Shown here piece by piece: positions 152 through 63,900 of a stretch of 64,000 nt of DNA. Both the position numbers and the translations under genes were made by a program. The stretch is taken from NCBI GenBank assembly GCA_905178155.1, contig CAJINV010000004.1:2378228-2442227 (forward strand). Direction: 5' to 3'. The number at the start of each line of letters is the position of its first letter. Positions within the stretch are counted from its first letter, which is position 1. This stretch comes from Amoebophrya sp. A120 (Eukaryota > Protista > Dinoflagellata). The notes beneath the pieces are model-generated. The model was not told the DNA's origin and ran no database searches. It saw only the letters and a list, made by a program, of their open reading frames with translations.

Positions 152-2995
152 GACCACGCGTCCGCGACGAAATCGTCCGCGACCCCGAACCTGACCCCCT
201 CGCTTCCCTTTGAGGCGATGCAGGAGAAGCAGACAAATTTGCAAACGCAGATGTTGCTGCAGCAGCAGATGCTGGCCAACATGCGGAATATTCTCCTCCT
301 CCAGCAGTTCAAGGACCGCCGACGGCTGAAAACGACGGACAAGCCGGAGTGGTGGGAGGAACTGGACCGGGAGAGCGTGGAGAAAAACCCCTTCGCCATC
401 CGACCGCTCGAATATGACAGTGCACAACTCCCCCTCCCTCTCATTTGTCATGCAAAACCCCAAATCCAAGTGCGTCCCTGTGGCACTAAGTGCATCACAG
501 ATTCCGGAAGCCCAAACAGTATTACACTAGGCGCATGAGTTTGTCATGAGCAGGCTCCACGTGGTGTGGTGTTTGTATTGCTGTTCATGCGATACAAATG
601 AGGGGGAGGGATAGTTGTGCACTCTCATATCGAAGCCAGCGCCCAGCAGGTGAAGGACGTTGCCAGCGTGTTGCGGAGAGTTGTCGAGGAACAGGAAAAT
701 CAAAATACCCATCAAAAGGGAAATAATAAGCAAATAACCTCGGCTACAACTTCCAAGTCCGTGCGCGGCGGGGGTGGAGCGGCTAGTACAACAGCGAACA
801 AGAAGCAGATTGTTCTTCAACAGCAGCAAATAAACGCCATGACCAGCCCGGCGTCCACGGCAAAGCGGTCCAAAGCCGCGTACTCCAGTCGCATGAGTAG
901 CAAGGGGACCAACAGCAGCAGCATCTACAGCGGTGGTCAACAGCCGCACGGTAGTGCTGCGGCTCTGGCGAAGATGGTCGTAAACAATCAGCAGCAGAAC
1001 AGCAATAGAGTTGTCGGTGTTAGTACGTCGTCTCCAAAGCCATCGTCTCCAAAGCCTTCCTCCAGAACCGCCACACCACTGTTGGAAAAGCGAGCAGCCA
1101 GAATGATGAAGGAGCTCGGTTGCACTATGGGAGAGCAACAGCAAACAAGGTCCTCGCAGCCGGTAGTTCTTGACAAAGTGCAGTCGCTTCTGGACAAAAC
1201 CATCACGCTGGGCCCGGTACAGGAGGAGGTGGAGATGGTGGAAAACGGCATGGAAACAAGGAGCATGAAAAAATCAAATTATACCGACGCAAACAACAAT
1301 AACAATTTGTTGACGACGCCTGACACCGCCGTCCCGCCGACCTCCTCCACCCTCGGCGGAGCCGGACCAACTACGTCAGCCAACACGACCGCTACACAAA
1401 TCACCGTGACGCAGCAAACCCCGGGGTTGAAAGCCTTTCTCTCCTCCCTCGACGAAGCGATGCAGACCTACTCCACGGAACTGATGCGCGCGGAAAGGAA
1501 CATTGCGAGAGAAGTTGTTGTTGGGAACGGTAGCAGCAGTAGCTTGCTGCAAACGGTGGAGCCGAGAGCAGGTGCCGGAGCAGAACAAGCGGCTTTGGAT
1601 CACCAGTATCTGCAAAACACTAGCAACCTGTCTTCCAACTTGGATCTCTTGGAACTGCAGTCGTCGCAATTCTCATCGGCGCAAAACAGCGGCGCGGGAA
1701 CAGGGTCGGGAGCCGGGGTAGCAGCTCCGGGGGCAATTGTGATGAACGCCGCAGAAGCTAATGTACTAGAGGAGGATGAAGAACAGGAGGAACTGCAGGA
1801 GCAACTACAGCAGAAAGACGCGATGTACGATGCTGCATGGACGAATTTCTGCTACGGGGGCAATCCAGCTGAAGAAGGCAATGCTTCCCCCTCTTCGCAA
1901 AGCAACACCATTTCCTTCGTCATCAACGTAGACTGCGGTGGTGGTGCAAACGGAACCACCTCAGGAGGAAATCTAAACTCGCCCACGGTGTCCGTCGTCC
2001 CCGGACCAGCAGCGCAGCAGCAGCCGAAAGTTGAGCAGGAGAAAGAAAAGCAACCAGCGTCCACCTCTCCTTGGCAAACGAGCAGCCGGTTCATGCAGCC
2101 CATGGACGACTTCCTGACCCTGCTCGTTCCGAAGACCGAGGTGGCGCGGAAGCTGGACGGCCCGGGGCTGGCGCTGATTATGTCCGACGCGACGGAGAAG
2201 CAGCGGCAAATGAATTCGATGCAGAAACCAGAACCGCAACTCGTGTACGCCAACGCGAACGGAGCGGGACCTGCGAATACCGTCTACGGGGGCCCCACCT
2301 TGCTAGAGCAGACGGCGCTGGATTTGGCGCAAGCGCAGCAAGCCGGCCTGCACCAGCCGTTTTTGTTGCACCAGCCGCCGCAGGTCGGCCTTCCGTCCGT
2401 GAAACCACAACTCATGTTAGCGGAGCCGGCCGGGATGATGATGCAGGGACCACAGCAGGGTGCAACTGTCAGTTCACCTGCTCTTTATTACGGGACAAAC
2501 AATTTGGTGCAAGAACCAGTCGACCAGCAGCTTGCTCAACAACCACAGCAGGTTCTCTTGCAACCACAGCAACAGCCGCTCGTCTTCCAGGACAGTCGAG
2601 GGGTTCGCTACGGCCCGGCGGCTGCACTACCGGCTGGAGGTCTAGCACCGGGGCAACCGCTCGCCTTCGTCCCAGCTGGTGGTGGTGGACCACAACAGTT
2701 TCTCACTCCCGCAGCGGCTGCTCCTGCAGGGTTAGCAACATCATCTCCTGAGCAACTTTTGACACTGTCTGCACCAGTACAACTGCAGCAACAGCCGAAC
2801 ATCAACTACATGTCAGCAGCAGGAGCAGGTACGCAGCCAGTGCTTGGGAGTACCAGCGGTCAGCCGGAACAACAAATGGTCAGCGTGCAGTCGCCGGTCG
2901 CGGCGCCCGCGGCGTTTGGAATGCAGCAGCCGGCAGTGCTCAGTCCGGTTCTGATGGACCCGGGGAATTTGCAGTGGACCATGCTGCAAGCGTGA
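152..2995 (+). CDS. Low-complexity Q/P/A/S-rich protein, 5'-partial (begins upstream of window); one TIR intron (413-629)
   Basis: Pyrimidine-rich acceptor ...tttcacAG at 151; exon 152-412 is in frame with ORF 218; removing 413-629 plus one TCGAA joins RPLE|ASAQQVKD to ORF 617-2995. No recognisable domain. Confidence 0.75.
413..629. mobile_element. TIR intron (introner), singleton family, 217 bp
   Basis: Left end TATGACAGTGCACAACT..CCCTC, right end reverse complement TATGAGAGTGCACAACT..CCCTC; 5-bp direct repeat TCGAA on both sides; removal restores frame. Confidence 0.9.
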
Positions 2996-10039: not shown

Positions 10040-13000
10040 ATGCGCCGGTCCGCATCGGCCGGGCGCGTGTCGCCTTTTTTGCGGCGGTCCGGATCCGTTA
10101 CCGGCGACACACAAAGCACAGCCACCACAGCCACAACGTTGGCAGGAAACAAAAGGCCACCGCCGCAGCAAGAGTCGCCCTCCAAAATTATTCGGAAAGG
10201 CGTTCTCTTGGAAGAGACCAAGGCCGACGGGAGTGTGCGTGTCCGATGGAAGCCCAGCACTAGCAGTTCCTCTACCCGAGCAGCAGGTGGCAGTGCTTCA
10301 ACGACTAGAAACAAAAGTTTCTCGTCCGGGGTCAATACGACGACCAACAGGCCCGGAACAACTTACAACAAACCCAGCCCAGTACAACTACTATCCTCCG
10401 CACCAGCCGCCTCGGCCAATGCCAACATGCGGGTGGACGAAATTCTGGCCGATTTATTTCCAACGCCGAGCGGCCAGCCGAGCCGCGCGTCCTCCAGTAC
10501 TAGCTCAGCAACATCTTCGAAGCCGGGCCCGGTACGGGGCACGGCTGGTGCAGCGGCAGTGGTCCTCGAACAGTTTTCTGCGGACCCGAACTCCTTGCTG
10601 AAAGAGGTGCTGGAGCAGGACCCGAGCACGCTGCGGCTCAGCCTCTTGCGGAACCGCCGACATGCTTCGGCCGATAAAAATCGGGGAACGACCCACCTAA
10701 ACGACAGGTCGGCAAGCCGACAGGAGCCGTCACCGATCGTGAACAAAGAACAAACCCCACCGTCCCCGGTCGCGTCGAGTGAAGGGTCGAAGGCAAGCAG
10801 CTCGACGTCGAAGAAGCTCCGGCTGTCGCTGAGTTTGGACCAGATGAAGACGAATTCGAAAGAAAGCATAAGTCTTGATGCTCGCAATCCACCGCCCATG
10901 GAAGCTGCGTCGAAAGAAGTTCATCTCAAGAACACAGCGACCGGCTCTACTAGTACTTTATTGCCCAAAAGCGCGGACACCACCATGGATACGATGACGC
11001 CGTTGACTTCGACCACGTCGCGGCGGTACTACGTGCAGGCCGACGGATTTTCGTCGCAGGCGAGCAGCCCGGGGACCGGGCGGATTCGCGCTGAATCTAC
11101 TTACGGGGGCGTGGGGGAGTTGCCTGCGCAGAAGTTCTTGTCAACTTCGTCTGGTAAAATAAATCAGACCGCTGTAACTTCGTCCTCGTCGCGCGCGAGC
11201 AGCCGTGGGAGGGGAAATCTTCAAAGCTCCTCTCCACTGGATACTAACACGAACAAGGTTGGTGCTGGCGCCGTGATCGCCGGGAATAATCCTTCGTCTT
11301 CCAGCACGGCAGGCGGTGGTCCTTTTTTTCAGCCACAATCCCGTGCTGGTCGGGGAGATTTTACGAGGACGAGCAGTAAAGAAAGTCAGAGTCAGCCCGA
11401 AATTGATGACAGTTCCGCCATGGAGCTCGGCTCCCTCGTGGAGCGTTCCGACCTGGCACGGAGCTTTTTCAACTGGCGGTTTCAGTTATGCAATGCAAAA
11501 GGAAAAGTATTGTTATTGTACTAGTAGTAATTGCAATACAAAATGGCTCAGCATTACAAATTTAAATTTGTAATGCGGGTTTCCCTAAGCACCTAGATTT
11601 GTAATGTATAACTGCAATTACTACGAGTGCGATACTTTTGCAGAGGATATCAGTTGTTGCAGAAGCGGTTTGACGACACCCACGTGGAGCAGCAGCACGG
11701 GCTGCTGGTCGCCGCGAAGTTTCTGAAGGACAGTCGGCGAAAAGAGCAAAGATTTCTCCTCGAGAAGGCCTTTTTGCAGTGGGCACGGACGGCGGCGACC
11801 AGTTTGGACCAGCGGGCTCTCGCCGCAGAAATCAAGGCGCAGTGCTTGGAAGACTTCACGATGCGAGAGGCTGGGCTGCGGGACGCGTTGCGGAACCACG
11901 TGCGGGAGAAGATGGAGATGTTGGTGGATAGTAGTTGCAACGGCGCTGCAGGAGGTAGGCCGGGCTCTTCATCTTTATCTTCGTCGGCGATGGTACTGAG
12001 AAAGATGGCGTTCTTCAGTTGGAAAATGACCGCGGCAGAGGGGATCGCGCTGCGGGCGAAGGCTGCTGCAGGTGAGCTAGTTTGATTTGGTTTCTCTTGT
12101 ACAACAATAGGAATAGGATCTGTTTCATAATCAACTGCAACTCCACGACCAGACTCTTCTTCACTTCTGCGTCCTTGTGGGTGTTGTCGTGGAGGATCTG
12201 CACGCAGTAGTTTGGAGGTTTTTCAAGATTTTTCGGTGAGTTCTTTGTCGTGCGCAGAATTCTTGATTTCGTTTTGGATTTCGACAAGTGCCCCAAGAAT
12301 TTGCGTTTGACATTGACCCCGATAGTACCAGGCATTTCACATGGATCGACATGTACTTACGCGCCAACTTTCTTCAGATGCCGCCAAGCAAGAGGAAGCT
12401 TTGACCGACGCTCCGGCGCTCGAAGCGCTCGCAACCCTGCAACGACAGGAGGAAGACCTCCACGGGCAAGAACAAACGCGCCGCACCCTTTTACACGACC
12501 GCAGGAAGGAGCGGAAACTTGCCGAGATCGTCAAGGCGGCGGACGAGGAAAATATTAAAACTGGAGAAGGCGGCTCGTCGTTTTCCAGATCTTTTAGTTC
12601 TTCGAAAGGCACGTCGAACAGTAGTAGAGCGGGCACTCCCACCGAGGACTACGGGAATGCATCAAATTCTGTTCCTACTTTGAAGCAGCAGATCAACGCG
12701 AAGCAGCTGCAACTGGAGCAGGAGGTGCTCCAGCACAAACTCGCGGACACAGGAGAGGAGAAGTTGAAGCTGGCGAAGCAAGATGTGCTGCAGAAGTCGG
12801 AAGAACAGGAGCTGCTGCTCTCCCAGAAAAACCAGGAGGTGGGCTCGCTGCTGCAGAAGGTCGGCGACCTGCAGCAGCAGATCGTCGACATGGGGAATTG
12901 GATAAACCACGGCAGTGGGATCATGATGAAAACAAATGAGGACGACACCGAGGAGACTGAAGAATCCAGGCAAGCGAGTTTGCAGCGACTGCAGCACGCG

Positions 13001-16000
13001 GAGGAAGATTTGGCGAGGTATCGGGAGCAGTGGGAAGAGAGTGTCTGTGCGAAGGAGATGCTGGAGCAGAGTTTGCATTCGAAGCAAGAGGAAATTTCTC
13101 TGCTTGAACAGAAAATCGAGGTGCTCACGGACGGCAGAAAAAACGACAAGGAGAAGCTCCGGAAAGCACAACTTTTGGATAACGATCGCAAAAGAACGAT
13201 TGAAAAGTTGAAGGAGGCGGCTCTGTCGGACAACCAGTTGAAGGAAGAAAAGGCGAAGCTGGCCGAGGAACGCGAGGCACTGGAGCGGAAAAAGTATTAA
13301 CTTTTGTGCCAGGGCGAATTGGTGACACTTAGTCCGTTTTCAGTCGCTTTACAAAAATTATGAGAAGAAATTTCTTGAAGAAAGATGCAGAAGCTCAGAT
13401 ACCGCAATAGATTACTTATGCAGTGTATTGGGTACTTTTTTCTTCGGGGTAGAAGAACACAATTTTCTCTACAACTTCAACAGGCAGCAACTGCTGAACC
13501 AGGGTAAGGCCCTGGAGCAGGTGCAGAAGCGGCTCGATGACTGCACAACAGACCTGGAGGAACAGAAGAAGGCCTTCGTCGAGAAGGAAAAGCTCCGGCT
13601 GTTCGAAGCTTTCGGTGACGCCAGAGCGAAGGCCGGGGATCTCGGCTGGCGATGGAAAAGCGTGCGATGTACTAAGTTGGGAATTCGAACATTGTTTTTT
13701 CTATTGTAGAACGAGTTTTTCAAATTACTTAGTTTTTCTTTTGCGTTTAAGTGCTTTGTCAAGTCCTGCAGGTGCAGCACTACTAACCTCACTGTCGAAA
13801 TAAGTAATTTACAAAAATCTCGCTCAGTGCGTCTCCAGTGCCTGCATGCGTGGCACCACTTGACCAAACAACTACGGCATGAGAAGCACCAGCGCGAACT
13901 CCAGGACGAATTCGATGCCTGCACCAAGGAATGGGATGACCAGGTGGCCGAGAAGCTGCGGGAGCAGAAGGCCGCGTTTGAGAAGCAACGGGAGCAGGAC
14001 CGAGCCAGAACGCAGGGCAGGATCGACGAACTGCACAAGGAAGTGGCGGAGAGTATATTACTACAACCGTTTTAGTTTTTTGCTACTATTAAGAATCTCA
14101 CACAAACACAATGTGCTGTTGTGCTCGCGGCTCTAGCACTTGCAGCACCAGGAGCATGATGCTACTTACTAGATGGCAGGAAGGACTACGATTTCGATTT
14201 GTGAAGTGAATCTTCTATGCATTGAAACTGTACATGTACAACAGGTCGCCGCGTGTTTTCGGAGAACACCGAACTGCGGGGCTCCACCGTGGCTGCCCGG
14301 ACGTCGCTTTCCATTTTCAAGGACCTGATGAAGCAGCAAATCGGGAATTTCGAGGAGAAAACGGGGGAAAAAATCAGAACCATAGACCAGAAAACAAAAA
14401 ACCTCTTTGCCGTAGTCCAGACGTTACTGATTAAGCAGAAGGAGCTGCAGGTCCAGAAATTCTCCAATCCATCCGAAATCGAGCTGGGCGACTTGTACCG
14501 CGAATTGAAAATGACGTACGGGAGATTACTGTCCGCCCACGCGGCAAAAAAAAGGGAACTGAATCTGTGCAAACAGGAGCTGAAACGGCAGACGAAGAGG
14601 AAGGAGCAAAACAAGTCTGGTGCTGGTACTAGAATTCTGTCGCGGAGCGCTTCCACCTCCGGCTTGGGGTTGGGCGGCTCGTCGTGTTCGGGGCACGAAT
14701 ATCAAAGTGAAAAATCCCCCCTCCCCATATCGGAAACGGAAGATGCGCGAATTTGTGATGCTGTATTTGAGTACACAAATCGTAATCGACTTGTATTGCT
14801 AGAAGGCCAAGAGACGAAGCTGCGGCCTAAATTGCAGGCAATCTGTCATGCTGTTTCCCACTTCCAGTTGCCTCCTGTCATCCTGGAGCTGCAGGGCTTT
14901 CCCAGGCTAGACAGCGCTACAGTCTGCATCTTTTGCCTTCTAGCATCACAAAGCTGATTTGTTGCCACAAATCTGCATCACAGATTTCCGTTTTGATATG
15001 GGGAGGGGGCATTTTTCATGGTAATAACGAAAAGAGCGGAATGGACACACCGATGAACCTGTCCTGCAGTATATGCAGGAAAAAAACTGTGTAAGTGTAA
15101 CTCTGCAATGCAGAACATGCAACAGAGTTACGCCTGTCATGCCAGAGAGCCACGAAGTTCTCTTTTCATGTGTGTGTTCCCTTACGAGCCACGCATGACA
15201 GGTTTTCTCTGACATGTAGACCAAACTTGTGATGCTGTCGGCCAAGGAAAGTTACACTAACACAGTTTTTTTCTTGGATACAGTAGCAGCGCGAGTTTTG
15301 CGCAGTACGGAACCAGCGGCGCAAGGATCCAAAGCTTGGAGCAACAGGTATATACATATAGCTTGCTGTGGTTGTTAGTTTTTGTAATACAGCATCTCTG
15401 ATTTTGCTACGTCTTGTCTATGTTTTTTCTGAGCGCCTATGCAGCCGAATCTTATGAAACCGACACTGATCATATAAACGATGCTAACATTACATTTATC
15501 ACCTACTCCACCAGGTCGCCACTCTGCAGCTCGAGCGCGGGAAATCGGTTCGCGAGTCGACGGAATTGGAATCGAAACTTACTACTTTGACCTCTGAAAT
15601 CGAGGAGCAAAAGCGGATTTTGAGGAAGCAAAACCGGGTGGTGTGGAAGGTGCGCGAGAATGCGTGGAAGCTGGATACCTTCACGAAGTGGCGAAGGTTG
15701 TGCTGCAGCAGTAGGGACGTGCAGGTGAAGAGCTCTCCCCTGCTGGGGAAAAATACAAGACAAGGCAATCCTCCACTCCCCGATGACGAAAACGAGGAGG
15801 ATGCAGTGCTGCTAGAAGAAGATCCTGACAACGGAACAATCGCGGTCCATCAGCAGCATCAAGAAGACCCGGGGACTGTGTCTACTAAAGACACGGCGGC
15901 AACGTCTACCTCTAAGGAAATAATGAATTCGTACAACAATCCGACAGCCAGCAGTGCCGGAGTGAGCAGCTGCGAAGAAACAACTTCGATGGCATCAGAA

Positions 16001-44524: not shown

Positions 44525-47500
44525 ATGCCTCGGAATTCTACTGCCTCCAGGGCTGCTCCAACAAATGCAAACATAACTCCTACCACCAGTACCACAAATA
44601 ATTCTTCGCGAAGTAGGCCGGCACGTGAGGACCAAGAACTACATGATCCGCAAAGCGCGACGAAAATTCTGCGCCTGCTCGAGGAGGATCATGACCCCAC
44701 GGCAGATGCGATTCCCACCTTATCCCACGAAAAAAGTGTTTCACTGTAAGGATTTTGCAAGTTTTGCATCACAAGTTTGCTCTGCATGACAGCGAAAATT
44801 TGCAATGCGCGACTTCCAAGGGAAAACACCGCTAAAAAGCCACTGTCTTGCATGTCTAGCAAAACAAACAGAAACACTTCTGAGATACATTTTCTGCATT
44901 ACAAGCTTACAGTGAAACAGGTTTTTCTTGCGATACGCCTACCACGACCAGAACGGCCTACTGTCGCCGACCAGCGGCGGGGTAGTAGTTTCATCGCTGC
45001 ACAGAACAAATTTGGATTTTCTAGAGGAGGAGGAGGAAGATGAAGCAGAACAACACCTACAACACCTACACCTACTTCCAAGGAGCAGCAATAAAGCCAC
45101 GACAACTCGACATCTTCGGGGTGGAGTAGATGGCGTGCAAAATGGTCAAATGGGACGCGGGCGAGGAGATACAGGCTGTAGTACTGAGACGGGCGGGACG
45201 AGTTTTTATCAAGTGGACGCTACTACAACGCCGACGAGGGTCCAGTGGACGCAGGTGGATGTTGAGGTCATCGCAAGACACCACTACAACTACCACTGTC
45301 AGTTGCAAGATACAACCACGGGCGCAGCTGGCTGTATTCAAGAAAATAACGGTTATTTTGATACTTCCACTTCATCGACGCGGTTCTACTCACAGTCTGC
45401 GTATACTACCGATCGCGACAGCAGTTCTTGTACCTTTTCATCTGCGGCCACTCCTGCCGTGGGGCGCGGTTGTATTCAAAATGTTTCGCTTTCGCTTTCA
45501 TCATATTCGCGTGAAAGTCTATTGATCTTTAGCAGGTAGATTGCGGTGTACTACTGACTGGCTCCACCCAGGATATAAGAGTAGAAGTCATGGACGCTTA
45601 TGAGCACCTCCGCGTGTTTCTTCTACGTACTCATTTTGTTCTTCCTGCTGGTGCTTCATGATGCATTTCTCAAATGACCGCCTGGATGAAAGTACACCTA
45701 CTACAAACAGCGTCATCTGTCGCAAGCACGAGCAGCACCCCTGGAGGCGGTCTAGGGGTGAGGAACGTCCTCACCGGTGGCGCGACGACCGTGCATGGTC
45801 CTTCCAGATTCCTGCCGTCGTCGACCTCCGCTTTCGATTTTGCCGCCGAGGACCGGCCGTTGGACTGTTTGCCCCTTTGTCAGCTGGAAAGTGCGCTTCT
45901 CACCACCACGAGAAAGCTGTTTCCCAAATTGCCCCATTTTGTCATTACTGGCGTAGCGGGGGCCGGAAAGCGGTTCGTGCTGCATGAACAAGAGGGGCTT
46001 GTTATCCTATTTAAAAACGTCCCCACCCCATAGTTGTAATGCAAATCTGCATGCTGAAAATGTTTCTCATGCGGAGCCCCATGAGAAGCATTTTCTAATC
46101 GTGTTTTGAAATTTGTCATGCTCCAATCAGCATGGTATGCTAGATCTGTGATGCTGCTGAGCAAGCTCAAACAGCACTACACTACGAATCCAAATTTGTC
46201 ATGCAAAACAGCCAAAACTTGTGGATTTGTCTAACCGATTCCCCAACTTGACTATGGTGTGGGGACGTTTTTACTCAGGATACTTGTTCCGTCAACAAAC
46301 AACAACAATAATAATAAAACTGCTGCGTCCTCTACTACTTCTCACTGTTATTTCCCCTCGTCGGCTACGGCTAGTAGTAGTTCTACCACTGCTAGTGCTC
46401 AACAAACGACCCAAACAAGTGGGCCGCGGACGACGGCGCACAGGATGAATAACAAGAAGACTACTCTAGCATCAGCCGCGCAAAGCAACAACTGTAGTAC
46501 CAAGAACATCCACGTGCCCTTCTCCGTTTTCCTGTCTCTCGTGAAGGAGGCGGAGGCGCTGTGCTTTGCCTTTGTTGACAACTCTGAGGTGGACGATGAT
46601 TATCGAAGCGGTTGTTCGGCACAAGGGCGAGAGGAGGAGGACAGAGCAACTCCTGTGAAGATGAAGATGAAAGTGCAGCTTCCGAGTATCAATCAAGCGG
46701 TGATGCAAACGAAGATGTTGCACGGCGGTGGTACAACTTTTGGTCTCCAGGAGGAGCAGCTGGAGGTGCAGCACCAATCTAATACCTTTGTCTCCCCGGA
46801 CCGAAATTATAAACAACTTCAACAATCTATGGATGTGTCAGGATTGAAATCGACAAAATCGAAAAATTTGTGATGCATAAAATGCAGGGCACTGAAGGCC
46901 TGTATTGGGGAGTAGGCAAATGAGGCCGATTGTAAGCCTGTTTAGGGGTATACAATGTGCTGCCAGAGTAGCATTACAGACGGAGTCTTCTTTGCCCAAA
47001 CAGCATGACAGACTGGATTTGGGTACTCCCGAAATTTGTCATGCGCCACTTGGAAACTGAGGCTCCAACTGACATCGATTTGGTGCATCATCGATTTTGT
47101 CAATTTCGATTCTGACACGTCCATACAATCAAGTGGTCGGCACAGACTTGCACGAGGAGATAGTCTCCAACACAGCGGGAAAACGACACCCAATTTGTTG
47201 TCATCTTCATCCTCGTGTGCAGTGTAAAAGTGTAGAGTATAATCCGACAGCACTAGGAGTGATTGCATTTGCATCACAAATGTGCTCTTCAGCATGACAA
47301 AGGGAGCACTTTGTCAATATGGTGCATTGCCTAAGAAACCAGCTTCGTCACATGCCGGATTCTTGCAAGTTACTACAACTGCTGCGATTTGTCTTGCTTT
47401 GCACAGGATACGCTGAAGAAGCATCTAATCTCCAGCACGAGCAGTACGCCGGGGCGTCGGCGCGGGCTCACGAGTGGGCCGCAGCCCAGATCCTGGATGT

Positions 47501-49971
47501 CCTCTACAGCATCCTCGGGCGCAGCGACGCCGTTCGATGTTGGTCTTCTAGGAGCGGCCCCGACGAATTTCACTACCAGTACGGACGGTGTCTTCCCGGT
47601 GTCGTCCAGTGGTGCAACGCAGCAACTGTTCGCGCGAACGGTAATATCTTCGTCAACAGCAGGAACATTCATCCACCAGAACAAATCGGTTCGCAGTACT
47701 GGATTTTTGCACAATTCCGGCCCGGCCTCCGTGTCACCGTCCAAGGAGCGTAGTGGCCGCCCCCGAACAGATGTTAGTATCGAAAGGGACGACGAGGGAA
47801 ACTTCGTCTTCGTCGCGATCATTCTTTCTTTGGCAGCTGGAAATTATGCATGAAAAAGCTGCATGTGCATGGGATGGCTGGTTGTCATGCCGGAGAACGC
47901 GTATATATAGAGAAATACGTAAAAATACCATTTTTTCTGCTGCACAAATGATTTTTTGCAAAATAGATTCATTATTTTTCGATCTCAATTGTGAAGACGA
48001 AGTGTTTATTTCGTTTGATAGTCCGCGGCCTGGTAAACAGTGCGTCCAAGAAGATTCTGGACTCTTGTACGTCTGGCGGAGGACCAGGACGTGTTGGCTC
48101 TGTAGTCTCCTCGTCTTCCGGTTCCTCGTCTAAAAACACCACTGCCTCGTGCACGCCGCCGGTTGGATATCGCAAGAAAAAGCTGTTGCACTGTAAACTT
48201 GTGATGCATAAAATGGAACACAGAAGTATTTGTCTATGCTACACATGCAAAAAAGTGGATTTTTAGCTGTGTTTCCCTTAGGAAGCCTGCGTGGCAAATG
48301 TTCTCTGTCATGTAGAACGAACTTGTGATGCAAAACGACCTGCAAAATCCTTACAGTGAAACACTTTTGTCGTACGATATTGGAACATCATCGAGTACTA
48401 TGGTTGTGACGGACCACCGGCCGCCAGTGCCAGCAGTACCAACATCTTCTTACACGACCCCCGCTGAAAATAATTGCACCTCATCCACCCGCCCCTACCC
48501 GGCGACACTGTTGCAGCAGCAAGATCTTCATCTCGTACGAGAAAGATACGACCAGCAGACTGCGATGAACTACACGGAAGATTTCGAGCTTGCTGCAACA
48601 ACTGGGTACATGCTCGATGAAACAGAAACAGCAGCAGCCGCAACGAAAAGCCAGCTGAATTTCTGTGGGCGGCTGGTGGTGTCGCGTATCGTACGAAAAA
48701 AGTGTTTCACTGTAAGGATTTTGCAAGTTGTGCATCACAAGTTCGCTACACATATACAAAGAAAACTTGCCATGCAAGGAGCCTAAGGGAAAACACCGCT
48801 GAAAATCCACTGTCTTGCATGTGTAGCAAGACAAACATCGCCGTGATGCATTTTCTGCATTGCAGACTTACAGTGAAACAGTTTTTTCTTGCGATATCGC
48901 GCCACCTCCCGTCAATGGAGGCCCTCAGGGGGCACAAGCAGTCGAAGCCTCGTATGGGGTTCTCAAACGTTACTTTCTCAACTGTTACATGATTTGTCAT
49001 GCAAAATGACCATGACCCGCCAGACGATCAAGCTGCTGCGCATGACAAATTCTGAGAGGGCTAAACAGCACTATAATCCGCACCAAACCTGTAATGCAAG
49101 ACGCGCAAGGTTCTCCCTCTCAACTGTGCTAGTCGTGCATTACAAATTCATGTCGGTTTAGCATTACAAATTCGGTGGTGGCCTGAGCATCTGCGGAAAG
49201 GTGCCCTATGGGTTGCGTTTGTGGTTTCGGTCGGTTTAGCATTACAAATTCATGTAACAGTTGGGAATGTAACGTTTGAGAACGCCATACCTCGGGAGCT
49301 TTCCCCGGGTGATAGTAACAGTAGATGACTGTGATGTCGATAACTTGAAGACGCAAAGATACTTTTGAGAATTCACTTTCCTCAACATGTACAAAGAATT
49401 TGAAGTAGACTTCTAAAATTGGTGACCCGACGAGTAGGACTACATGATAATGCTTCGAGATTTTCAATATACGTGACACTCATTTTTTCTTTTCATCCTG
49501 TACGATAGATTCAACTATGTCGGTTTTTGATTTTGATTTATGCACAACATGTAGGACCAGGCGGAGGCCTGCAGCCCACCAGGAGCACGAGGTGCCCGAT
49601 AGATCTCTTTGCAGGAGGAAGAGCCACAGCAGCAGGTTGCCTTTGACAAGAATTTCAGACGCGCGGTGGTCACGTTCCTACTTTTGATTTTGTACGATGA
49701 AGATGTTGCCTTGGCTCAGCACTACCACTATGTGGACAAAAATTCTGTCGCACGCATATGTGAAAGAGGATATTCTTCTCGACACACCAAAGCCAAAGCG
49801 CTCCCGCTACTTCCCCCGTGGCCTACTTCACGACTGCGGAGACAACTTTTGCACCGCGTCTTCGCACCGAAGAAAAATCATTCGTGTTTAAAGACGTGTC
49901 TGTGTCATGGTTTTTCTGAAGCTGGCATCATCATTCAGGCAAAATCAAATATCGGTGAAAATCAAAAGTAA
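44525..49971 (+). CDS. Hypothetical P-loop protein, possibly a highly divergent RFC small-subunit/AAA+; 8 TIR introns; 3' end uncertain
   Basis: Frame is restored across 8 elements and a probable GT-AG intron (~45469-45710). LPHFVITGVAGAGKR resembles the RFC Walker A region; NFRRAVV in ORF 49609 resembles sensor-2, but its linkage to upstream exons was not resolved. Confidence 0.5.
44721..44935. mobile_element. TIR intron, family F, 215 bp
   Basis: TATCCCACGAAAAAAGTGTTTCACTGTAAG...CTTACAGTGAAACAGGTTTTTCTTGCGATA; direct repeat CACCT/CGCCT; join AIPT|YHDQNG. Confidence 0.9.
46003..46282. mobile_element. TIR intron, family D, 280 bp
   Basis: TATCCTATTTAAAAACGTCCCCAC...GTGGGGACGTTTTTACTCAGGATA; direct repeat CTTGT; join EGLV|PSTNNN. 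Confidence 0.93.
46828..47125. mobile_element. TIR intron, family G, 298 bp
   Basis: TATGGATGTGTCAGGATTGAAATCGACAAAATC...GATTTTGTCAATTTCGATTCTGACACGTCCATA; direct repeat CAATC; join LQQS|SGRHRL. Confidence 0.92.
47216..47410. mobile_element. Degenerate TIR intron, 195 bp
   Basis: TGTGCAGTGTAAAAG...CTTTGCACAGGATA; internal GCATCACAA and GCATGACAA; flanks CCTCG/CGCTG (2/5); removal of element plus 5 nt skips an in-frame stop and joins SSSS|KKHLISS. Confidence 0.65.
47778..48020. mobile_element. Degenerate TIR intron, 243 bp
   Basis: TATCGAAA..ACTTCGTCTTC...GAAGACGAAGT..TTCGTTTGATA; flanks GTTAG/GTCCG (3/5); join TDVS|GLVNSA. Confidence 0.7.
48168..48379. mobile_element. TIR intron, family F, 212 bp; opposite orientation to 44721 and 48687
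   Basis: TATCGCAAGAAAAAGCTGTTGCACTGTAA...TTACAGTGAAACACTTTTGTCGTACGATA; direct repeat TTGGA; join PPVG|TSSSTM. Confidence 0.93.
48687..48896. mobile_element. TIR intron, family F, 210 bp
   Basis: TATCGTACGAAAAAAGTGTTTCACTGTAAG...CTTACAGTGAAACAGTTTTTTCTTGCGATA; direct repeat TCGCG; join VVSR|HLPSME. Confidence 0.93.
48953..49289. mobile_element. TIR intron, singleton family, 337 bp
   Basis: TATGGGGTTCTCAAACGTTACTTTCTCAACTGTTACATGA...TCATGTAACAGTTGGGAATGTAACGTTTGAGAACGCCATA; direct repeat CCTCG; join SKPR|ELSPG. Confidence 0.92.
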
Positions 49972-50826: not shown

Positions 50827-53800
50827 ATGGGAGGTAATAAATTATGGATTGCAAAAGTGTCTGGGTCTGGAAAGTTGGAACTTGTAATGCTGGTCTTGCA
50901 TTTCTGTGAAATCTGTATTGCATGACCAACAAAAGTGGTAGCCTCCCATGTCATACAAAAACGCAGCTTGTCATGCGGAGTTCGTATGAGAAAGCGTACT
51001 GCAAACTTGTCATGCTTTCCTGCATAAGGTAGTGACTTCCTCTTGCACACGACCCAGACATTTTTGCAGTTGATATAAATCCTCGCAGAACAATAACAAT
51101 TTGCCTTCCGGGCGGAACAAGATATCCTCCGTGAAAAACGCCCCAACCTCCCCAATAAAGTTGTCGTGAAAAAAATCTGTAAATCTTCAGGGTAAGCTGA
51201 TCGATTTCTCATCATGTGGCTGCACTAGTGAATCATCAGATTACAATCCTAGTACAACAGGCCCACAGCACGACTTGTCATGCGCAACAGCTAGAGCTTG
51301 TTGCTTTGTGGCGCCCATCTTGACACTGGGATGCTGGGGAGGTTTTCACACAGGATAGAAGATGGCACCAGGCGGGCTTAAGACGATGCTGTGTTTCAGC
51401 TATCAAACAAAAAAAGTTCGTCACGATCTCACTCATGCGCATTTTTGCAATACAAAACTGTCTCCTGTCATGCGTATTAGAAATGCATCACAGTCGAGCT
51501 TATTTCTGCTCGAAGACTCGGATTTCTCTTGTGTGTGTGCCTACAGAACAAGAAGAAGGGAACCTGCAAAGATGCAGGAAAAATTTGTCACGCACCGAAA
51601 CCTGCAAGTTAGTGATAGTGACTACGAACTCCAACTCTTGTCTTTCTATATCAGCGCCGCCACGACTTTTAATGTTATGCCCGGCGCGCACGGGCTTCTG
51701 CGGGTGATGATGGAAACAAAGAAAAAGAAGAGTGCAAGTAGCAACAAATTCGCGGCGGCGCGGGAGAACCAGTATCTGAAAATGCTGGGCGACGTTTCGA
51801 CTTCTGTCCAAGACCTTCGCACGCAACTTTCCCAGCATGCCACGGCTATCGGCAGCATGCAGACGATATGCAACACAAAAACTGTGTGAGTGTAAGTCTG
51901 TGATGCAGAGAATGCAAAACAGTAATATGCTTGTCATTCTGGATGTGCGTCATAGAAGACTACTAACTTTCATACGTGTTTTCACGTACGAGCTGCGCAT
52001 CGCAGGTTTTTTCTGTAATGCACAAGGAATTTGTGATGCTGTTGCTGTTCTTCCTACAAAATTACACTTACACAGTTTTTTTCTTGGATAGTCTAAAGAA
52101 GTGCATCAGCAGAAGCAAATCGACTACTTGACGGGGCTATGCATTGCAAATGTGTCTGGGTCTGGAAGGTTGCAAATTTGTGATGCTGTCTTTGGATTCT
52201 TAGAAAATTTGTGATGCTATTGCTAGGTCATCGATTGCAGGCATCCAGGGTCAAGATTCAAAATATGCATGACAAACCTGGCAATATTCCAGACCCAGAC
52301 ATATTTGCATTTGATACGGGCATTTGAATCAATTGAAGCGCAGCATTGACATATCGCAAGAAAAAACTGTTTCACTGTGAACTTGTGACGCAGGAAATGG
52401 AACACGACACTCTTTGTCTTGCTACACATGCAAGACATAGGATAATTTTCAAGCATATGTTTTCACTTGGAAAGCGCGCATGGCAAAGTTTCGGTGTCAT
52501 GTGTACACAAACTTGCGACGAAGATCTTGTAAAAGAATCACAGTGAAACACGATTTCCCGACGATATTAAGGCCTCGCGTTTGGCGACGCCGAGAAATGC
52601 GCGGCGGAGATCATGAACCCGACGAGCGGAAGCCACTTTGCGGTGTACACCTGGAATCGTGCCCCGCACACCTCTATGGATTGCAAATATGTCTTCTGCG
52701 TCTGGAAGAGTATCAAGTTTGCCTTGCGGTGCAGCTTGTTTTGCATGACCCGGAAGGAGCAAGTCTGGAATGCGAGCCGTAGCGTCTTCACAAGTTTTTG
52801 GAAGGCTCCTCGATGTTGCCTATCCTGTGCATGAGAAATGTCGCCTCGTCCAGGTGACCAAAATTGGGTGGCTTTTGCTACACATGCCATACACATATTT
52901 TTGTTTCCACCTCAAGTAGATGTTGTAACAACATCTAGCGTCAATTTTCACAAACTCAGACTGTTCCAGATTCAGGCACTTTTGCAGTTAATAACGTCCA
53001 GTCCGGAGCCCCTGGAGCCCGGGCTGCCCCTGGAGAAGCGACTGAAAGCAGAGGAGACCAATCTTTGGCACGAGAGATACGACCTTTACCCCGGGGACAC
53101 GAAAACCGTTCGCGCCTTTGACGGGCAGAGTAAACAGTGTGACACGTTTCGGATATTCGTCGTTCGCCAGAACAGCTATCATTTGTAAAAACGTCCCCAC
53201 CCCATAGTCAAGTTGGTAAATCTGCAACACAAATCTCCAAGTTATGGGAGTTTTGCATGACAAGTTTCTATCTGTAGTGTCGTGCTGTTTGGCAAGGGCA
53301 GACGCATGAGAAGGCCAGCTTCTCATCCCGTTTACAGCATTTTTACAAGGTCCAAAACAGGATTGGAAATGCCTCTCATGCAGATCCTCATTACAAAAAC
53401 TAATGTTGCTCTCATTGCGCATTTGCATGACAACTCTGGGGGAGGCAAACGCAAAGGGTGTCGCACTTCTGTTTAGCATGACAACTCTGGGGTGGATACG
53501 TTTTTTCATAGGATAACAGCCGCAACATATTCACGCGCAAGTACAGCGACAAAATGATGCAGCTGGAAAACGGCAAATCCTACGTGATTATGGCGCCCAA
53601 TGAAGTCATGCTCCAGGGTATGGAAGCGTCAGGATGGAAATCGACAAAGTATGGATGAAATAATTTCTCATGCACAAAATCGATAACAGTTTTTAGAGCC
53701 AAACTGTATAGTCGGCACATGACAAATTTTCCCTCCGCCGGAAGCGAATCTGTCACGCTGTTTAGGGCAAGGAGCTCCCCTCTGTCATGCTAGTCAGCAT

Positions 53801-54516
53801 GCAGGCGCAGCCCAATTTTTGACCCTTAGCAGGGCTATGATCTGCCTCCTTTGCATTTTCTGCAATAGAGGCACCCTCTGCGTCGCATTTTATGCATTGC
53901 AAATCATTTTAACTATGGCGATTTCGATTCTGACACGACTCCCATAACGGGCGAAATGGCCCTGCGGCAGCAAACATCGGGAGGAGCCATCACTCCCTCG
54001 ACCGCTGTCCCGTCTACTGTGAGGAAAAATCCCCCCTCCCTATACTGAAAAGGTATATTTCTGAAAATTTGCGATGCTGATTTGTGGCCGCAAATCCTGC
54101 GTCTGCCTCTCTTGCAAGAGGGCAAACTCAGAAACTCTGCCACGATATGCAGGCGATTTGTAATGCTGAAAGGCCTACAGGGCAGACGTCTGCCATGCTA
54201 GGCCCCTACACCAAAGGGCCCCCCCTTAGGCTTACGATCTGCCTGCAGTGCCTTACTGCAACACAAATGTGATTTGTGTACTCAAATACAGCAACACAAA
54301 TTTCGTTTTCGATATGGGGAAGGGGGATTTTTCCTTTTGATACCGTCTGGGAGCGCTTCAGTTGCGTCCGACACGGAAGATGATGCTGCTGCGCCTGATG
54401 CATATCAAGCTCTGCGTGGTGCTACGACTCCATTTGACGATGATCAAATGCCGATGCCGTCTGCTCCGCCGGGTGCTCCAACTCCAATTCCGTCTGGCCC
54501 TCCGGAAAACCGTTAG
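50827..54516 (+). CDS. Hypothetical 329-aa protein split into 11 exons by 10 TIR introns
   Basis: Removing 10 elements plus one 5-mer each (2,700 of 3,690 nt) leaves 990 nt, open from ATG to TAG: MGGNK|SSQNNNNLPSGRNK|MAPGGLKTMLCFS|AATTF...MQT|KEVHQQKQIDYLTG|HLNQLKRSID|SLAFGD...PHTS|SPEPLE...RQNS|RNIF...MLQG|EMALRQ...VPS|GSASV...PPENR. Central coiled-coil-like segment, Pro-rich tail. Confidence 0.82.
50843..51075. mobile_element. TIR intron, family A, 233 bp
   Basis: TATGGATTGCAAAAGTGTCTGGGTC...GACCCAGACATTTTTGCAGTTGATA; direct repeat TAAAT. Confidence 0.9.
51123..51357. mobile_element. TIR intron, family D-like (diverged), 235 bp
   Basis: TATCCTCCGTGAAAAACGCCCCA...TGGGGAGGTTTTCACACAGGATA; direct repeat CAAGA/GAAGA. 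Confidence 0.85.
51401..51650. mobile_element. TIR intron, singleton family, 250 bp; in frame and stop-free
   Basis: TATCAAACAAAAAAAGTTCGTCACGATCTCACT...AGTGATAGTGACTACGAACT..TCTTTCTATA; direct repeat TCAGC; internal TGTCATGC and GCATCACA motifs. Confidence 0.8.
51867..52090. mobile_element. TIR intron, family C, 224 bp
   Basis: TATGCAACACAAAAACTGTGTGAGTGTAA...TTACACTTACACAGTTTTTTTCTTGGATA; flanks GACGA/GTCTA (3/5). Confidence 0.87.
52138..52316. mobile_element. TIR intron, family A, internally deleted, 179 bp
   Basis: TATGCATTGCAAATGTGTCTGGGTCTGGAA...TTCCAGACCCAGACATATTTGCATTTGATA; flanks GGGGC/CGGGC; both ends align to 31801-32062. Confidence 0.9.
52352..52566. mobile_element. TIR intron, family F, 215 bp
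   Basis: TATCGCAAGAAAAAACTGTTTCACTGTG...CACAGTGAAACACGATTTCCCGACGATA; flanks TGACA/TTAAG (2/5), frame still restored. Confidence 0.85.
52675..52993. mobile_element. TIR intron, family A (diverged), 319 bp
   Basis: TATGGATTGCAAATATGTCTTCTGCGTCTGGAA...TTCCAGATTCAGGCACTTTTGCAGTTAATA; flanks ACCTC/ACGTC. Confidence 0.85.
53177..53515. mobile_element. TIR intron, family D, 339 bp (internal 51-bp gain)
   Basis: TATCATTTGTAAAAACGTCCCCACCCC...GGGGTGGATACGTTTTTTCATAGGATA; direct repeat ACAGC; close to 42207-42495. Confidence 0.93.
53619..53946. mobile_element. TIR intron, family G, 328 bp
   Basis: TATGGAAGCGTCAGGATGGAAATCG...CGATTTCGATTCTGACACGACTCCCATA; flanks CAGGG/ACGGG (3/5). Confidence 0.85.
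54015..54342. mobile_element. TIR intron, family B, 328 bp; left terminus diverged (TACTGTG)
   Basis: TACTGTGAGGAAAAATCCCCCCTCCC...GGGGAAGGGGGATTTTTCCTTTTGATA; direct repeat CCGTC. Confidence 0.9.
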
Positions 54517-55062: not shown

Positions 55063-55115
55063 AAGGAGAAAAGTCAAAGCTGTTAAGGAGAAAAGTCCTG
55101 CCAAGGAGAAAAGTC
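55063..55115. repeat. Three direct copies of AAGGAGAAAAGTC
   Basis: Exact 13-mer at 55063, 55085 and 55103. Confidence 0.85.
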
Positions 55116-57156: not shown

Positions 57157-57390
57157 TTGGGAAATCCTTTCTCCTGGGCTTTTCGCATGATTTCCTTTGG
57201 GAAATCCCTTCTCCTGGGCTTTCCGCATGATTTCCTTTGGGAAATCCCTTCTCCTGGGCTTTCCGCGTGATTTCCTTTGGGAAATCCCTTCTCCTGGGTT
57301 TTCCGCGTGATTTCCTTTGGGAAATGCCTTCTCCTGGGCTTTCCGCATAATTTCTTTTAGGAAATCGCTCGCCCCTGGGCTTTCCGCGTT
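57157..57390. repeat. 40-bp tandem repeat (~6 copies) with internal hairpin
   Basis: Unit GATTTCCTTTGGGAAATCCCTTCTCCTGGGCTTTCCGCRT; GATTTCC/GGAAATC is self-complementary. Confidence 0.92.
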
Positions 57391-57540
57391 ATAGGAAATC
57401 TCTTCCTTAGGAGCCGGCCGCTGATCTCCGCGTCAACACGTACTGGAAGCAAGCTCCTTCTGATCTCCACTGCGAAACAGAGCGGAGACGAGCTCGGTGG
57501 CTAGGGTCTGGGTGGGATAGGGCCTGTCATAAGTATCGCG

Positions 57541-57677
57541 GTTTCTCCTTTGATATGGATCAGAGGGTCCGCGATGTCGGACTTTTCTCCTTTGATATGG
57601 ATCAGACGACTTTTCTCCTTTGATATGGATCAAAGGAGAAAAGTCCGGACTTTTCTCCTTGCAAAGGAGAAAAGTCC
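57541..57677. repeat. Palindromic array of GACTTTTCTCCTT/AAGGAGAAAAGTC
   Basis: Copies at 57580, 57608, 57633, 57648, 57664 (last four alternate in orientation); AAGGAGAAAAGTCCGGACTTTTCTCCTT (57633-57660) is a perfect 28-bp palindrome. Confidence 0.9.
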
Positions 57678-57715
57678 GCTGGATTGATACCAGAGCGAGC
57701 AGCTCCTGGTCCAAG

Positions 57716-57900
57716 TCCTTCTGTTTTTGCTTCAAATCTTTCCGTTTTAGCATCAAATCCTTCTGCTTTGGCATCAAATCCTTCTGCTTTAGCATCAAAT
57801 CCTTCTGCTTTAGCATCAATTCCTTCTGTTTTAGCATCAATTCCTTCTGTTTTAGCGTCAATTCCTTCTGTTTTAGCATCAATTCCTTCTGTTTTTGCTT
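57716..57900. repeat. 21-bp tandem repeat (~9 copies)
   Basis: Unit TCCTTCTGYTTTAGCATCAAW; reads QKELMLK/QKDLMLK on the minus strand. Confidence 0.92.
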
Positions 57901-60900: not shown

Positions 60901-60948
60901 CAGAACATCAACATCCTACATAGATATTAAACTTCCGCATCCGCAACG

Positions 60949-63900
60949 ATGAACGAGGAGGAGGCTGAGGCCGTGCACGACGATGACACCACGTTTTACG
61001 TCCTCTACGTGGAGACTATTCGCCTCGCCCACCCCGACCCACAGCCACTGAACGCCTGCATCCACTGGTACATCGGGGACGCGTATCAAATGTAAAAGTG
61101 TCTGGGTCTGGAAGAATGCATGTTTGTCATGCTTGTCTGGCATGACTCTTAAATATGTCATGCACGTTACCCAGGAGCTCTGTTTTTCTGTGATGCAGAA
61201 ACGCAGTTTGTCATGCAGAATAGGCAACACCTAGAAGCTCAGAAACTTGTCATGCTGAGCCAGCACTTGTGGCCTCATCATGAGACGCCACCCAGCATCA
61301 CAAGTTTCCAGACCCAGACATATTTGCAGTCCATAACGCGGACTACAGTTCAGTGCCCTTCACCATCCCGGCGAATGCGCAGTGGTACGATCTGAAAAAC
61401 TGCGGTTTTGTTCTGGTGCCCGACGCCGCACTGAAAGAGGACAGCGAAAAGAACAGCCTGACCCTGTCGATCACCAGCTGGGAAGGAGAACACCTGGGCG
61501 TCTTCTTTGGACACTGCGGAGACATCGCCACAAGTATTAAATTATATCACGATCATGTTTACATTTATTCTTTTGCTTCGATAGTTGTAGTTCTAGCTAC
61601 CGTCAAAGCAGTTGTTGGGTTACAAAACGTTCATAGAAGTTACGTCCCGCTGAATAAAAAAATCTTCTCTGCCCATTTTTTATCAGGCGAAACGTTCGAC
61701 AAGCATGACGTCGAGCTTTTGCACGAAGACGGCTCCTTCGCGACCGCCGAACTTCACGCGGCACGCCAGGGCCGTTGGACGCTGAGTGGCGCGAAGCAAA
61801 AGGAATGCGTGTTTGTCGATCCGAGCAACGATGCCCAGGCCAAGCACATCTGGGAGTTCATCGCGCCGGAGCCTACCGCGTCGTGGAAAGGCACAGCCAA
61901 GGCGAAGGGGACGGCTCCACCTGCGGCGGCCGGTGGGGTTGATGCGGGGGAAACTACATCTGCTTCAAAGGCGGACACAAGCAAGATGGTAGAGGAAGGC
62001 CAGAATGCTGGAGCAAGTGGTAGTACCGACGAGAAGAATAAAGCTGAGGCAGGTGGGGCCGCGTCGAGTAGCCGTGGTCCGAGGGTATAATTCAGTCTAT
62101 ATCATCTTGCTTTGTGTTGTGAATGAAGATGAACGCGGTGCAGCAGCTGCAACCTACGGCACACCTTCGAATATTAGAATTAGAAAGAGGAATGATATAA
62201 GTATCGATAACAGGTGCCATCATTCTTGGACGCAGAACGCATATGCAACGCGTGATGATTATCGCAGGCTCAGCACAAATGAATATTTATGAATGCTGAA
62301 AGCTGCAACAAGTTAGTGCTTTGAATAAAATACAAATATACGGAAATCATCATGTGCACGAAAATCAAAATCAAATTCCGTTCGTAAAATAAAACACAGG
62401 ACGCCGATCCGAGCCCGGAAATAAAAGCCAGTAAGGAAAGCGAACAAAAAGGCGCCCCAGGAGACGACACTGCAGCAGCAGAAGATGGAGCTGGTACTCA
62501 CTCGTCTTTGCATACAGTTTTTCCACATGCCGAATCTATTGCAGTGCCGAAGGAGCTTGCGCTAAATCGTTTTTTACGTGCTACGAGTGCAGAAGACGAA
62601 GAGCGTCTTTCACTTTCTATATCTATTTGCTTTTGTGCTCCTTCGATGACATAAATGATTATGAAAAAACCGTAATCACAGACGACCCCGGGAATGCCGA
62701 CCCGAAGGGCGCCTCCACCGCGAAACGCAAAAGCGCCCGCAAAAGGACGTCCGCGAAGGCCGACGCGAGCGACGAGCCTTCGGTACCAGGTAAAGAGGTT
62801 GTAGTAGTTGCCAGCGCAAGCAAAGAAGGAACATCAAGTGCAACTACGTCGCCAGGCAAAAAAACCAAACTCAACGTCGGGAGCAGCAATAAGCAGGCGG
62901 AGCTCACTTCCCTTCCCCCCGGGGAGCAGAGAAACTCTTCGGCAAGTAGTCCGGAGCGGAAAATGAAGACCAACGTGTTCAAACGAGCTGCGCAAAGCGT
63001 GATCGACGCGAACATAGCGACCAGCAGTTCAACGTCTCGGAAAAGTACGAACAAATCGCCCAGAAAATCGAAAAGCAACCGAGACAGCAACACCACTGGA
63101 GGTGAAAACAAGGGAAATAAAGTAGGCGAGTTCCTTCTGGACAAAGGCGTGGAGCAGTTAAATGAGTTCACCAACAAGGTCTACGCGTCCGAAGGCTGCC
63201 GCGCCACGCTGATGCATCCGAGTAATGGGCAGAAGATGCCGGTCAGAATGCGAATTCTTATGAAGAAAACAGGCTTACCCGTCCCCGGGAGTGAGGTCAG
63301 CAACATCGCGGAGGATGCGTATTTGGAGATCGCGAAAGACAGTGTGGACAACAGTAGCAACCCGTTTCTCCAGCCCGCCTTACCCTCTACTGGTGTAGTC
63401 TCCAGCACCGCTGCGAGCGCAGCCCTTCCCTCCGGCCGGTCTCTGAACAAAAACATCCTCCGTTCCGTGAAGCTGTCCGGCATCAAGAACCTGTTTCTCG
63501 GCGCGAATTTATCGCCGTTGACGAAACGGGCCTTGAAACTGACCGAGGAGAAACAGTTGCAGTACCTGCACCCGCTGTGCGTGACCATGCAAATCTCCGA
63601 GGAGTTGGAGTTTCTGACCCTGGAGTTTCTGTACCCGGACCAAGTGCAAGACGTGACCGAGGACGGGTTGAACCTACACACGGAGGAGCTACTCGGGAAC
63701 AAATCCGAGTACCTTCCGCAGTTCATCGAATTGTGTCGCAGCTACTACGCGCCGCCGAGGTACCCCGACGAGCCGCAGACGTATAATTTGCTTTCCAAAC
63801 AGCAGTTTCCCGACGTGAAGAAAGTGTGTGAGGAGGCGGTGGTAAAAGTGGCGCAGAAAAAGGTGAACGACCTGCAGACGCTCCGGAACTCGGTAAACTT

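Follow-up and report, generated by a model that had tools for sequence, protein, structure and literature searches.

The Locus and Its Introner Elements

The subject of this article is a 64,000-nucleotide stretch of DNA from the dinoflagellate Amoebophrya sp. A120 (contig CAJINV010000004.1, positions 2,378,228 to 2,442,227; hereafter the window), the short introner elements that interrupt its genes, and an internal word, GCAT(G/C/T)ACA, that is shared by element families with different ends. The window genes examined all lie on the + strand, and Pfam profiles identify among them a member of the EAP30/Vps36 family (5765-7708), a gene with RCC1 repeats (37875-41098) and a gene with an ArfGAP domain (42104-43686). 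One ArfGAP exon of the window matches an NCBI protein named Amoebophrya sp. A120 with 100% identity, and the window elements are the published introner elements of this organism, themselves already known: Farhat et al. (2021, PMC7789003) describe the non-canonical introns of A120 as introner elements whose inverted repeats consist of TAT, seven loose bases and a run of A, with short direct repeats of 3–5 nt flanking them at the junctions. The shared internal word is real and appears to be undescribed, and the most likely reading is that it is a mobility signal of a known sort, met here in an unusual context.

The window yielded 31 candidates when searched for TAT…ATA termini flanked by a 5-bp duplication; one (47238–47907) was dropped because its repeats were poor and five elements were added by eye, which leaves 35 elements of 150–339 bp each, 9,016 bp in total. 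Stop codons in all three + frames mark 31 of the 35 as non-coding, and in sequencing run X5 the read depth over elements far exceeds that over unique DNA.

The family letters used here are our own labels, and copies of the word are strict matches given with their strands. Type A lies at 19687..19937 (three copies, 1 + and 2 −), 19994..20245 (five, 4 + and 1 −), 21507..21758 (six, 5 + and 1 −), 25441..25702 (five, 2 + and 3 −), 31801..32062 (four, 3 + and 1 −, with one duplication mismatch), 37625..37876 (three, all +), 38003..38271 (three, 1 + and 2 −, added by eye and damaged in its right repeat), 39782..40033 in the RCC1-repeat gene (three, 2 + and 1 −), 40403..40670 (three, 2 + and 1 −), 50843..51075 (three, all −), 52138..52316, which is internally shortened (three, 1 + and 2 −), the decayed 52675..52993 (none), and 61084..61335, inverted relative to 19994 (six, 1 + and 5 −). 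Type B is found at 14700..15026 (four, 2 + and 2 −), at 23354..23664, inverted relative to 14700 (four, 3 + and 1 −), and at 54015..54342, which was added by eye and has the left end TAC (one, −). The type C elements are 30745..31027 (four, all +), 31121..31415, which lies opposite to it in the same gene (three, all −), 42207..42495 (two, both +), 46003..46282 (four, all −), the diverged 51123..51357 (one, −) and 53177..53515 (three, all +). Type D1 comprises 44721..44935 (three, all +), 48168..48379 (two, both −), 48687..48896 (one, +) and 52352..52566 (none; decayed duplication, added by eye), and type D2 comprises 15072..15280 (three, 1 + and 2 −) and 51867..52090 (three, all −; decayed duplication, added by eye). 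The remaining types are E at 46828..47125 (four, 2 + and 2 −) and 53619..53946 (one, −, added by eye), F at 413..629 (two, 1 + and 1 −, with a perfect 5-bp duplication), G at 11487..11649 and 36442..36591 (each two, 1 + and 1 −), H at 48953..49289 (six, 4 + and 2 −) and I at 51401..51650 (two, 1 + and 1 −). A probable decayed element at 47208..47410, its left end uncertain, stands outside the 35.

When end pairs were collected without requiring a duplication, the 5-bp target duplication was perfect in 273 of 358 pairs and the termini read TAT…ATA in 330 of 358; there is no sixth duplicated base and no base preference within the duplications, whose uniform length falls within the published 3–5 nt. 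TAT is present at 24 of 24 representative ends and A occupies positions 11–15 in 18–22 of the 24, with types E and H deviating. The 5-bp duplication, the absent target preference and the occurrence of both orientations are marks of DNA-type integration, and a reverse-splicing origin of the elements is ruled out by both orientations and the duplicated target. All 35 elements appear to lie in coding frames, and none lies in the long intergenic stretches or in the GT-AG introns demonstrated by RNA, although some 40% of the non-element DNA of the window looks non-coding (an estimate by eye); this placement suggests either targeting to exons or loss elsewhere.

Removal of the Elements from RNA

RNA contigs that bridge three of the elements (14700, 15072 and 40403) omit the element together with one copy of the duplication, and all three thus show the removal without GT-AG ends that characterizes A120 introners. 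Contigs of runs X1 and X4 skip 332 nt at element 14700 and 214 nt at element 15072 (two of the ten elements in that stretch, with no bridging contig listed for the other eight), and a contig of run X3 skips 40398-40670, which is element 40403..40670 plus 5 nt (one bridged of 22 among the listed pieces). Runs X1–X4 represent one sample of one study and no record labels them as RNA; they are treated as RNA because their contigs lack GT-AG introns, five of which are missing from the X1 and X4 contigs. In run X8 (raw RNA reads) coverage was confined to element-like pieces, with no unique exon among them, so that this run is uninformative on splicing; the joint coverage table was flooded by repeats and the piece table alone was used.

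Reading frames are restored when each element is deleted with 5 nt, to the extent that five elements lie inside one 8,286-nt stop-free frame, and on the shorter side the removal of five extra bases leaves a median open stretch of 196 nt, versus 109–127 nt when 0, 4 or 6 are removed. For example, the A120 ArfGAP protein reads straight through element 42207–42495, which splits the domain between profile positions 29 and 31, the exon pieces around it matching Pfam profile positions 2–29 and 31–88. Elements of the spliceosomal GT-AG introner kind were considered and rejected, since base composition within the duplications is that of the background, the terminal ATA is followed by G in 89 of 287 cases, and the element segments skipped in RNA are not GT..AG. 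At element 52352 (52347-52571) the two duplication copies have diverged and the whole downstream copy would create a stop codon, so two or more bases of the upstream copy must survive the RNA cut; decayed duplications such as this one can map the true splice position.

A Word Common to All End Types Examined

The pattern GCATNACA has 108 matches in the window, as compared with 7.97 ± 2.60 in 100 shuffles (largest 16). Inside the 35 elements lie 104 of these (11.5 per kb), and the other ~55 kb holds four (0.07 per kb), two of which fall in the probable decayed element at 47208..47410. At least one copy is present in 33 of the 35 elements and at least two in 29, with about three strict copies per element, usually followed by RRTTT; none of the five RNA-shown GT-AG introns of the window contains the word. 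An earlier note on this DNA had proposed from the letters alone that nearly all elements carry several copies of a word that appears rare in flanking exons, and this was confirmed: shuffling within elements yields a mean of 2.8 copies and a maximum of 9 in 500 rounds, as compared with the 104 observed, and the seven strings that it cited all exist, their TGT beginning 33–55 nt in from the left end.

The sample was enlarged by scanning metagenome contigs with the commonest terminal repeat, which yielded 152 loci (415 kb) from one assembly that has no unique sequence in common with the window. The element finder returned 301 elements from these loci, 295 of them with the motif, and none from shuffled loci; four elements longer than 500 bp were left out, so that 297 from the loci and 35 from the window make up a set of 332, which falls into 17 end types plus one unassigned element. 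The word is present in 324 of the 332 and in all 17 end types, as it is in all nine window lineages defined by motif-masked interior alignment. Its middle base over the 332 elements is G in 550 copies, C in 299, T in 164 and A in 9. Each of the 16 cluster consensus sequences holds 4–10 copies with at most one mismatch, versus 0.4–0.9 expected, and this includes groups that cannot be aligned with one another. A separate scan of viral contigs with a two-motif pattern gave 121 loci, none of which resembles an element, and these were set aside as chance hits. Motif clusters of the 152 loci that the catalogue does not cover have an enclosing repeat and duplication in 26 of 94 cases versus 3 of 60 random sites, and those at L002:1030-1290, L033:502-653 and L058:2050-2351 point to further or damaged elements; many of the remaining 94 clusters resemble damaged known families, and prediction from clusters was not used as evidence.

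The layout of the copies is less regular than the mirrored arrangement that the earlier note had called typical. In the window an outward-facing copy stands 28–60 nt from the left end in 18 elements, from the right end in 17 and from neither in 11, and only 11 of the 35 have one at both ends; the enlarged set has such a copy at one end or more in 239 of 332 elements and at both in 123. The first outward-facing site lies 33–34 or 41–45 nt from the element end, and a same-orientation spacing of 31–33 bp recurs in 11 of the 17 types. Numerous copies lie in the interior, and there are families that are polar as a whole; in type C all strict copies of an element point one way, and the neighbours 30745 and 31121 are oppositely oriented in one gene. 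Helical phasing of the motif slots relative to the ends (10.5-bp) gave p values of 0.024–0.068 with a best period of 9.5 at the edge of the range, and is not claimed.

Relations Among the Families and Their Ends

The ends are not unrelated beyond TAT, as had been supposed: the published TAT-N7-AAA pattern is present, and the same outer 9-mers turn up in different families. Within a single element the left and right terminal repeats frequently disagree at positions 4-8, and discrete variants of these positions recur across families A, C and G, which suggests an exchange of outer ends or a zone without need to pair. The further claim that the families are otherwise unrelated goes too far. With the motif masked, families A, G, C, F, H and B2 have no credible interior link to other groups, but the four D types are related (z of 6–16 in five of six pairs, the remaining pair having 1.5), as are B and E (z 6.3); weak links with z of 3–5 (B–D1, D1–H, D2–B2, C1–F) were discounted among 120 comparisons. 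Common descent thus explains part of the sharing of the word, and at depth probably all of it, but it does not explain why the word was retained.

When the D families are compared in pairs, a difference in the inner repeat at one end has its counterpart at the other in 26 of 33 cases. This is compatible with the proposal that family-specific repeats supply end pairing, although co-evolution with a protein fits equally well. Inner repeats that vary from family to family but are kept at both ends of an element are also what separate enzymes would predict, and it could be imagined that each family has its own transposase, which reads its inner repeat, while a host DNA-binding or chromatin protein binds the word and raises the rate at which elements with the word are copied or inserted, for example by tethering them to transcribed exons. 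Other systems offer examples of host proteins that act as cofactors in transposition, and the window elements do sit in coding frames. However, host DNA is nearly devoid of the word (the four matches in ~55 kb noted above, two of them in a decayed element), and one end type with one duplication length in all families points to one enzyme class, so that we consider a host protein of this kind doubtful.

Selection on the Word and Its Decay After Insertion

The earlier note had taken the word to be a common cis-signal, and comparison between related families supports such a signal held under selection. Where such families can be aligned, identity is 0.78–1.00 at the word versus 0.49–0.73 at other interior positions. 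Among 245 copies in clusters, differences from consensus amount to 0.038 at the fixed motif sites, 0.159 at the free middle base and 0.132 in the interior; the middle base is no less variable than the interior. A relic without function, inherited from a common ancestor, would be in keeping with the relatedness of some families, whose motif slots are in register (the D types, and B with E), and with the free decay of the word after insertion described below. It is difficult to reconcile with 78–100% identity of the word against 49–73% for neighbouring bases, or with 4–10 copies in all 16 consensus sequences, including those of groups without alignable interiors; and because the middle base varies while the other seven do not, the relic reading is largely refuted and we regard it as very improbable.

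The fate of the word in copies that have already landed was followed in 386 copies gathered by motif-masked interior similarity, of which 368 in clusters of seven or more were analysed, the reference for each copy being the consensus of its five nearest neighbours. An independent clock was provided by the number of mismatches between the paired duplication copies; 37 elements in which this number reached three or more were excluded because their register may be wrong, and 261 copies with a perfect duplication were contrasted with 70 that had one or two mismatches. The older copies carry an excess of 0.0234 substitutions per site in the word (95% interval 0.009–0.039), 0.0238 in the interior (0.008–0.041) and 0.0213 in the inner repeat, and stratification by family gives 0.025 for the word versus 0.021 for the interior. 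All motif slots are broken in 10 of 330 copies, with 6.9 expected. For the terminal three bases the excess is 0.0056 (−0.008 to 0.023), and 95% of bootstraps place it under the interior value; this is only a hint that the terminal TAT may be constrained after insertion. Overall, on these alignments the word appears to be protected while lineages copy themselves and not detectably afterwards.

A Signal in DNA or in RNA

A word of this kind could act in the removal of the elements rather than in their spread, through a factor that binds it on RNA, or on DNA during transcription, and directs non-canonical excision, its several copies being redundant. Such a role would account for its near-universal presence (324 of 332) in elements that must be removed without GT-AG ends and for its absence from the five RNA-shown GT-AG introns, and binding sites of PUF proteins begin with UGU, as does one reading of the word. 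The strand of the word in the host gene is informative here. A codon model assigned the host strand to 303 of 344 scored elements and was right for 29 of 30 window elements. Both orientations occur in genes for all 16 clusters (136 vs 118), and on the sense strand of the 303 elements GCAUNACA alone is read in 46, UGUNAUGC alone in 46, both in 204 and neither in seven. A single-stranded RNA-binding site of the PUF or RBFOX type was rejected on the equality of these 46 and 46 one-reading elements, whose splicing is inferred from frames.

Left and right copies have complementary middle bases in 40 of 123 elements, where 57 are expected, and the two copies are equally far from the ends in 8 of 123; by these counts the left and right copies are apparently not tuned to pair in register. 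The splicing role must further contend with a decay after insertion that equals the interior rate, with copies lacking the motif that are not depleted, and with two in-frame elements of the window that have no strict copy (their splicing likewise inferred from frames). A version in which the factor is bound to DNA co-transcriptionally evades the argument from strand, but not the result on decay. Taken together, we consider it unlikely that the word is a splicing signal. The earlier note had left the type of factor between a transposase with a subterminal site and an RNA-binding excision factor; a subterminal site at the level of DNA fits what was found, whereas the RNA-binding factor fits poorly with strand blindness and decay.

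A Model for the Shared Word

The explanation that we consider rather probable is that the word forms subterminal, double-stranded DNA binding repeats for one transposase-like protein that copies all of the families. The families would then be non-autonomous descendants of one old transposon group. One protein would recognize both the internal word, repeated and often bound as two sites 31–33 bp apart, and the outer end that the families share, and the two copies of the inner inverted repeat would drift together. After insertion the word would likely be unneeded and would decay, and removal from RNA would depend on something else, likely the paired ends. There is precedent in the Emigrant miniature inverted-repeat transposable element (MITE), whose subterminal repeats are reported to be bound by transposase (PMC1636448).

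Several observations weigh against this model. A search of the window and the 152 loci (415 kb) for long or autonomous elements turned up none, the only long objects being composites of neighbouring short ones; Pfam scans of 12 open reading frame pieces from the window gave no transposase; and Farhat et al. (PMC7789003) report that A120 has none. The 31–33 bp spacing may be inherited, and half of the sample is of one type, since the type A pattern fetched the loci and type A supplies 165 of the 332 elements. The power of the decay test is modest (96 substitutions in the older group). When damage to the terminal repeat is used as the clock, the ratio of word to interior excess is 0.66 (0.38–1.02), which leaves room for the partial constraint that a splicing role would impose, and private substitutions at motif sites run at 0.69 (0.58–0.82) of the interior rate; both ratios fit selection during copying, but they also fit partial selection after insertion, and redundancy among three to four copies could hide a splicing role. 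There is a slight sense-strand excess of TGTNATGC (506 vs 435, nominal p 0.022, the copies not being independent). In folded RNA, motif bases are paired at 0.79 versus 0.61 for other interior bases (106 elements), and 112 of 324 word copies pair with another copy, a high level of pairing that arises because both orientations are present.

Other Features of the Window

In a non-coding region at 33771-34361 the 9-mer TGACACGCA occurs 25 times, with 12 copies on the + and 13 on the − strand, and within this cluster a palindrome at 34073-34222 starts with TAT and has arms that match at 22 of 22 bases. The 9-mer is a two-mismatch look-alike of the element motif, and no 5-bp duplication was seen at the cluster. 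Elsewhere, ten copies of the 11-mer GGAGAAAAGTC occur on both strands in intergenic DNA at 55065-55115 and 57580-58004, with one in the 415 kb of loci, and tandem repeats of 40 bp and 21 bp lie near these clusters at 57116-57369 and 57670-57921; the GGAGAAAAGTC clusters are possibly regulatory or a repeat remnant. The element-free intergenic stretches 3700-5400, 8000-9300 and 55100-56700 are very GC-rich (up to 69%), and the open reading frames scanned from them gave no Pfam match.

Comparison with Known Systems

The A120 introners described in PMC7789003 share with the elements studied here the TAT start, the loose seven bases, the A run, the direct repeats, a length of a few hundred bases and non-GT-AG removal. 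The available text of that paper describes terminal and direct repeats only and no shared internal word, and its supplement text contains no match to the motif strings, whereas here one word unites 17 end types. No description of the word in A120 elements was found by titles and abstract openings, although figures, unsearched supplements, theses and subscription papers could mention it. The same paper divides the A120 elements among 1,954 families and argues that transposases do not move them as a general rule, and the word shared across end types argues instead that the many published families may form one group. PMC7789003 also finds no U1 small nuclear RNA in A120 and states that the spread and removal of the non-canonical introns are open questions. 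A bolder extension, which we put forward tentatively and consider unlikely as it stands, is that all of the tens of thousands of TAT-ended A120 introns are one transposon group, that a single protein reads the internal word and not the family ends, leaving the inverted repeats free to change while they pair, and that this protein or a domesticated partner marks the DNA for U1-independent, orientation-blind excision.

Gozashti et al. (2025, PMC12130899) classify many A120 families as DNA elements with terminal inverted repeats of unknown superfamily, and lengths of ~150, 210, 255, 280 and 305–320 bp listed among these families are similar to those of the window elements. That work treats the A120 families as mechanistically diverse, and no shared internal motif is mentioned in the text searched. 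Among its families, family 38 has inverted repeats and Copia/Gypsy-like open reading frames, which makes it a candidate helper only, and integrase-like open reading frames are described for one family.

Ginger2/TDD elements resemble those of the window in having inverted repeats and, in TDD-4 and TDD-5, 5-bp duplications (PMC2836005), but assignment to this group was rejected because the ends reported there are TGTNR with a target preference, as opposed to TAT…ATA in 330 of 358 end pairs and no preference here. The non-conventional introns of Euglena (PMC12501133) likewise lack GT-AG, have paired ends and carry a short shared signature. In Euglena this signature is described as a triplet that pairs, lies at a constant short distance from the junction and is needed for splicing. 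A code of the Euglena type was rejected for A120, where the word lies at least 33 nt inside in most copies, its middle base is complementary in 40 of 123 elements, the distances agree in 8 of 123 and the word decays after insertion. The decay pattern assigns the word to mobility, and the paired ends remain the lead for splicing.

Subterminal repeats are a feature of hAT and CACTA elements, and the idea of subterminal binding repeats is itself not new. The word most likely functions in the manner of such repeats in MITEs: the A120 elements have terminal inverted repeats, a target duplication of fixed length, no coding capacity and many copies, and they carry a short repeated internal motif that is conserved between lineages and independent of strand. 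In Emigrant/Lemi1 (PMC1636448), too, short non-coding elements with terminal inverted repeats and a fixed duplication contain internal motifs in both orientations. Unlike MITEs, the A120 elements have a word that is common to families with diverged inner repeats and interiors, with sites throughout the element, and they double as precisely removed introns; and because this word is common to every end type examined, it can serve both as bait for finding the protein that binds it and as a tag for an autonomous element.

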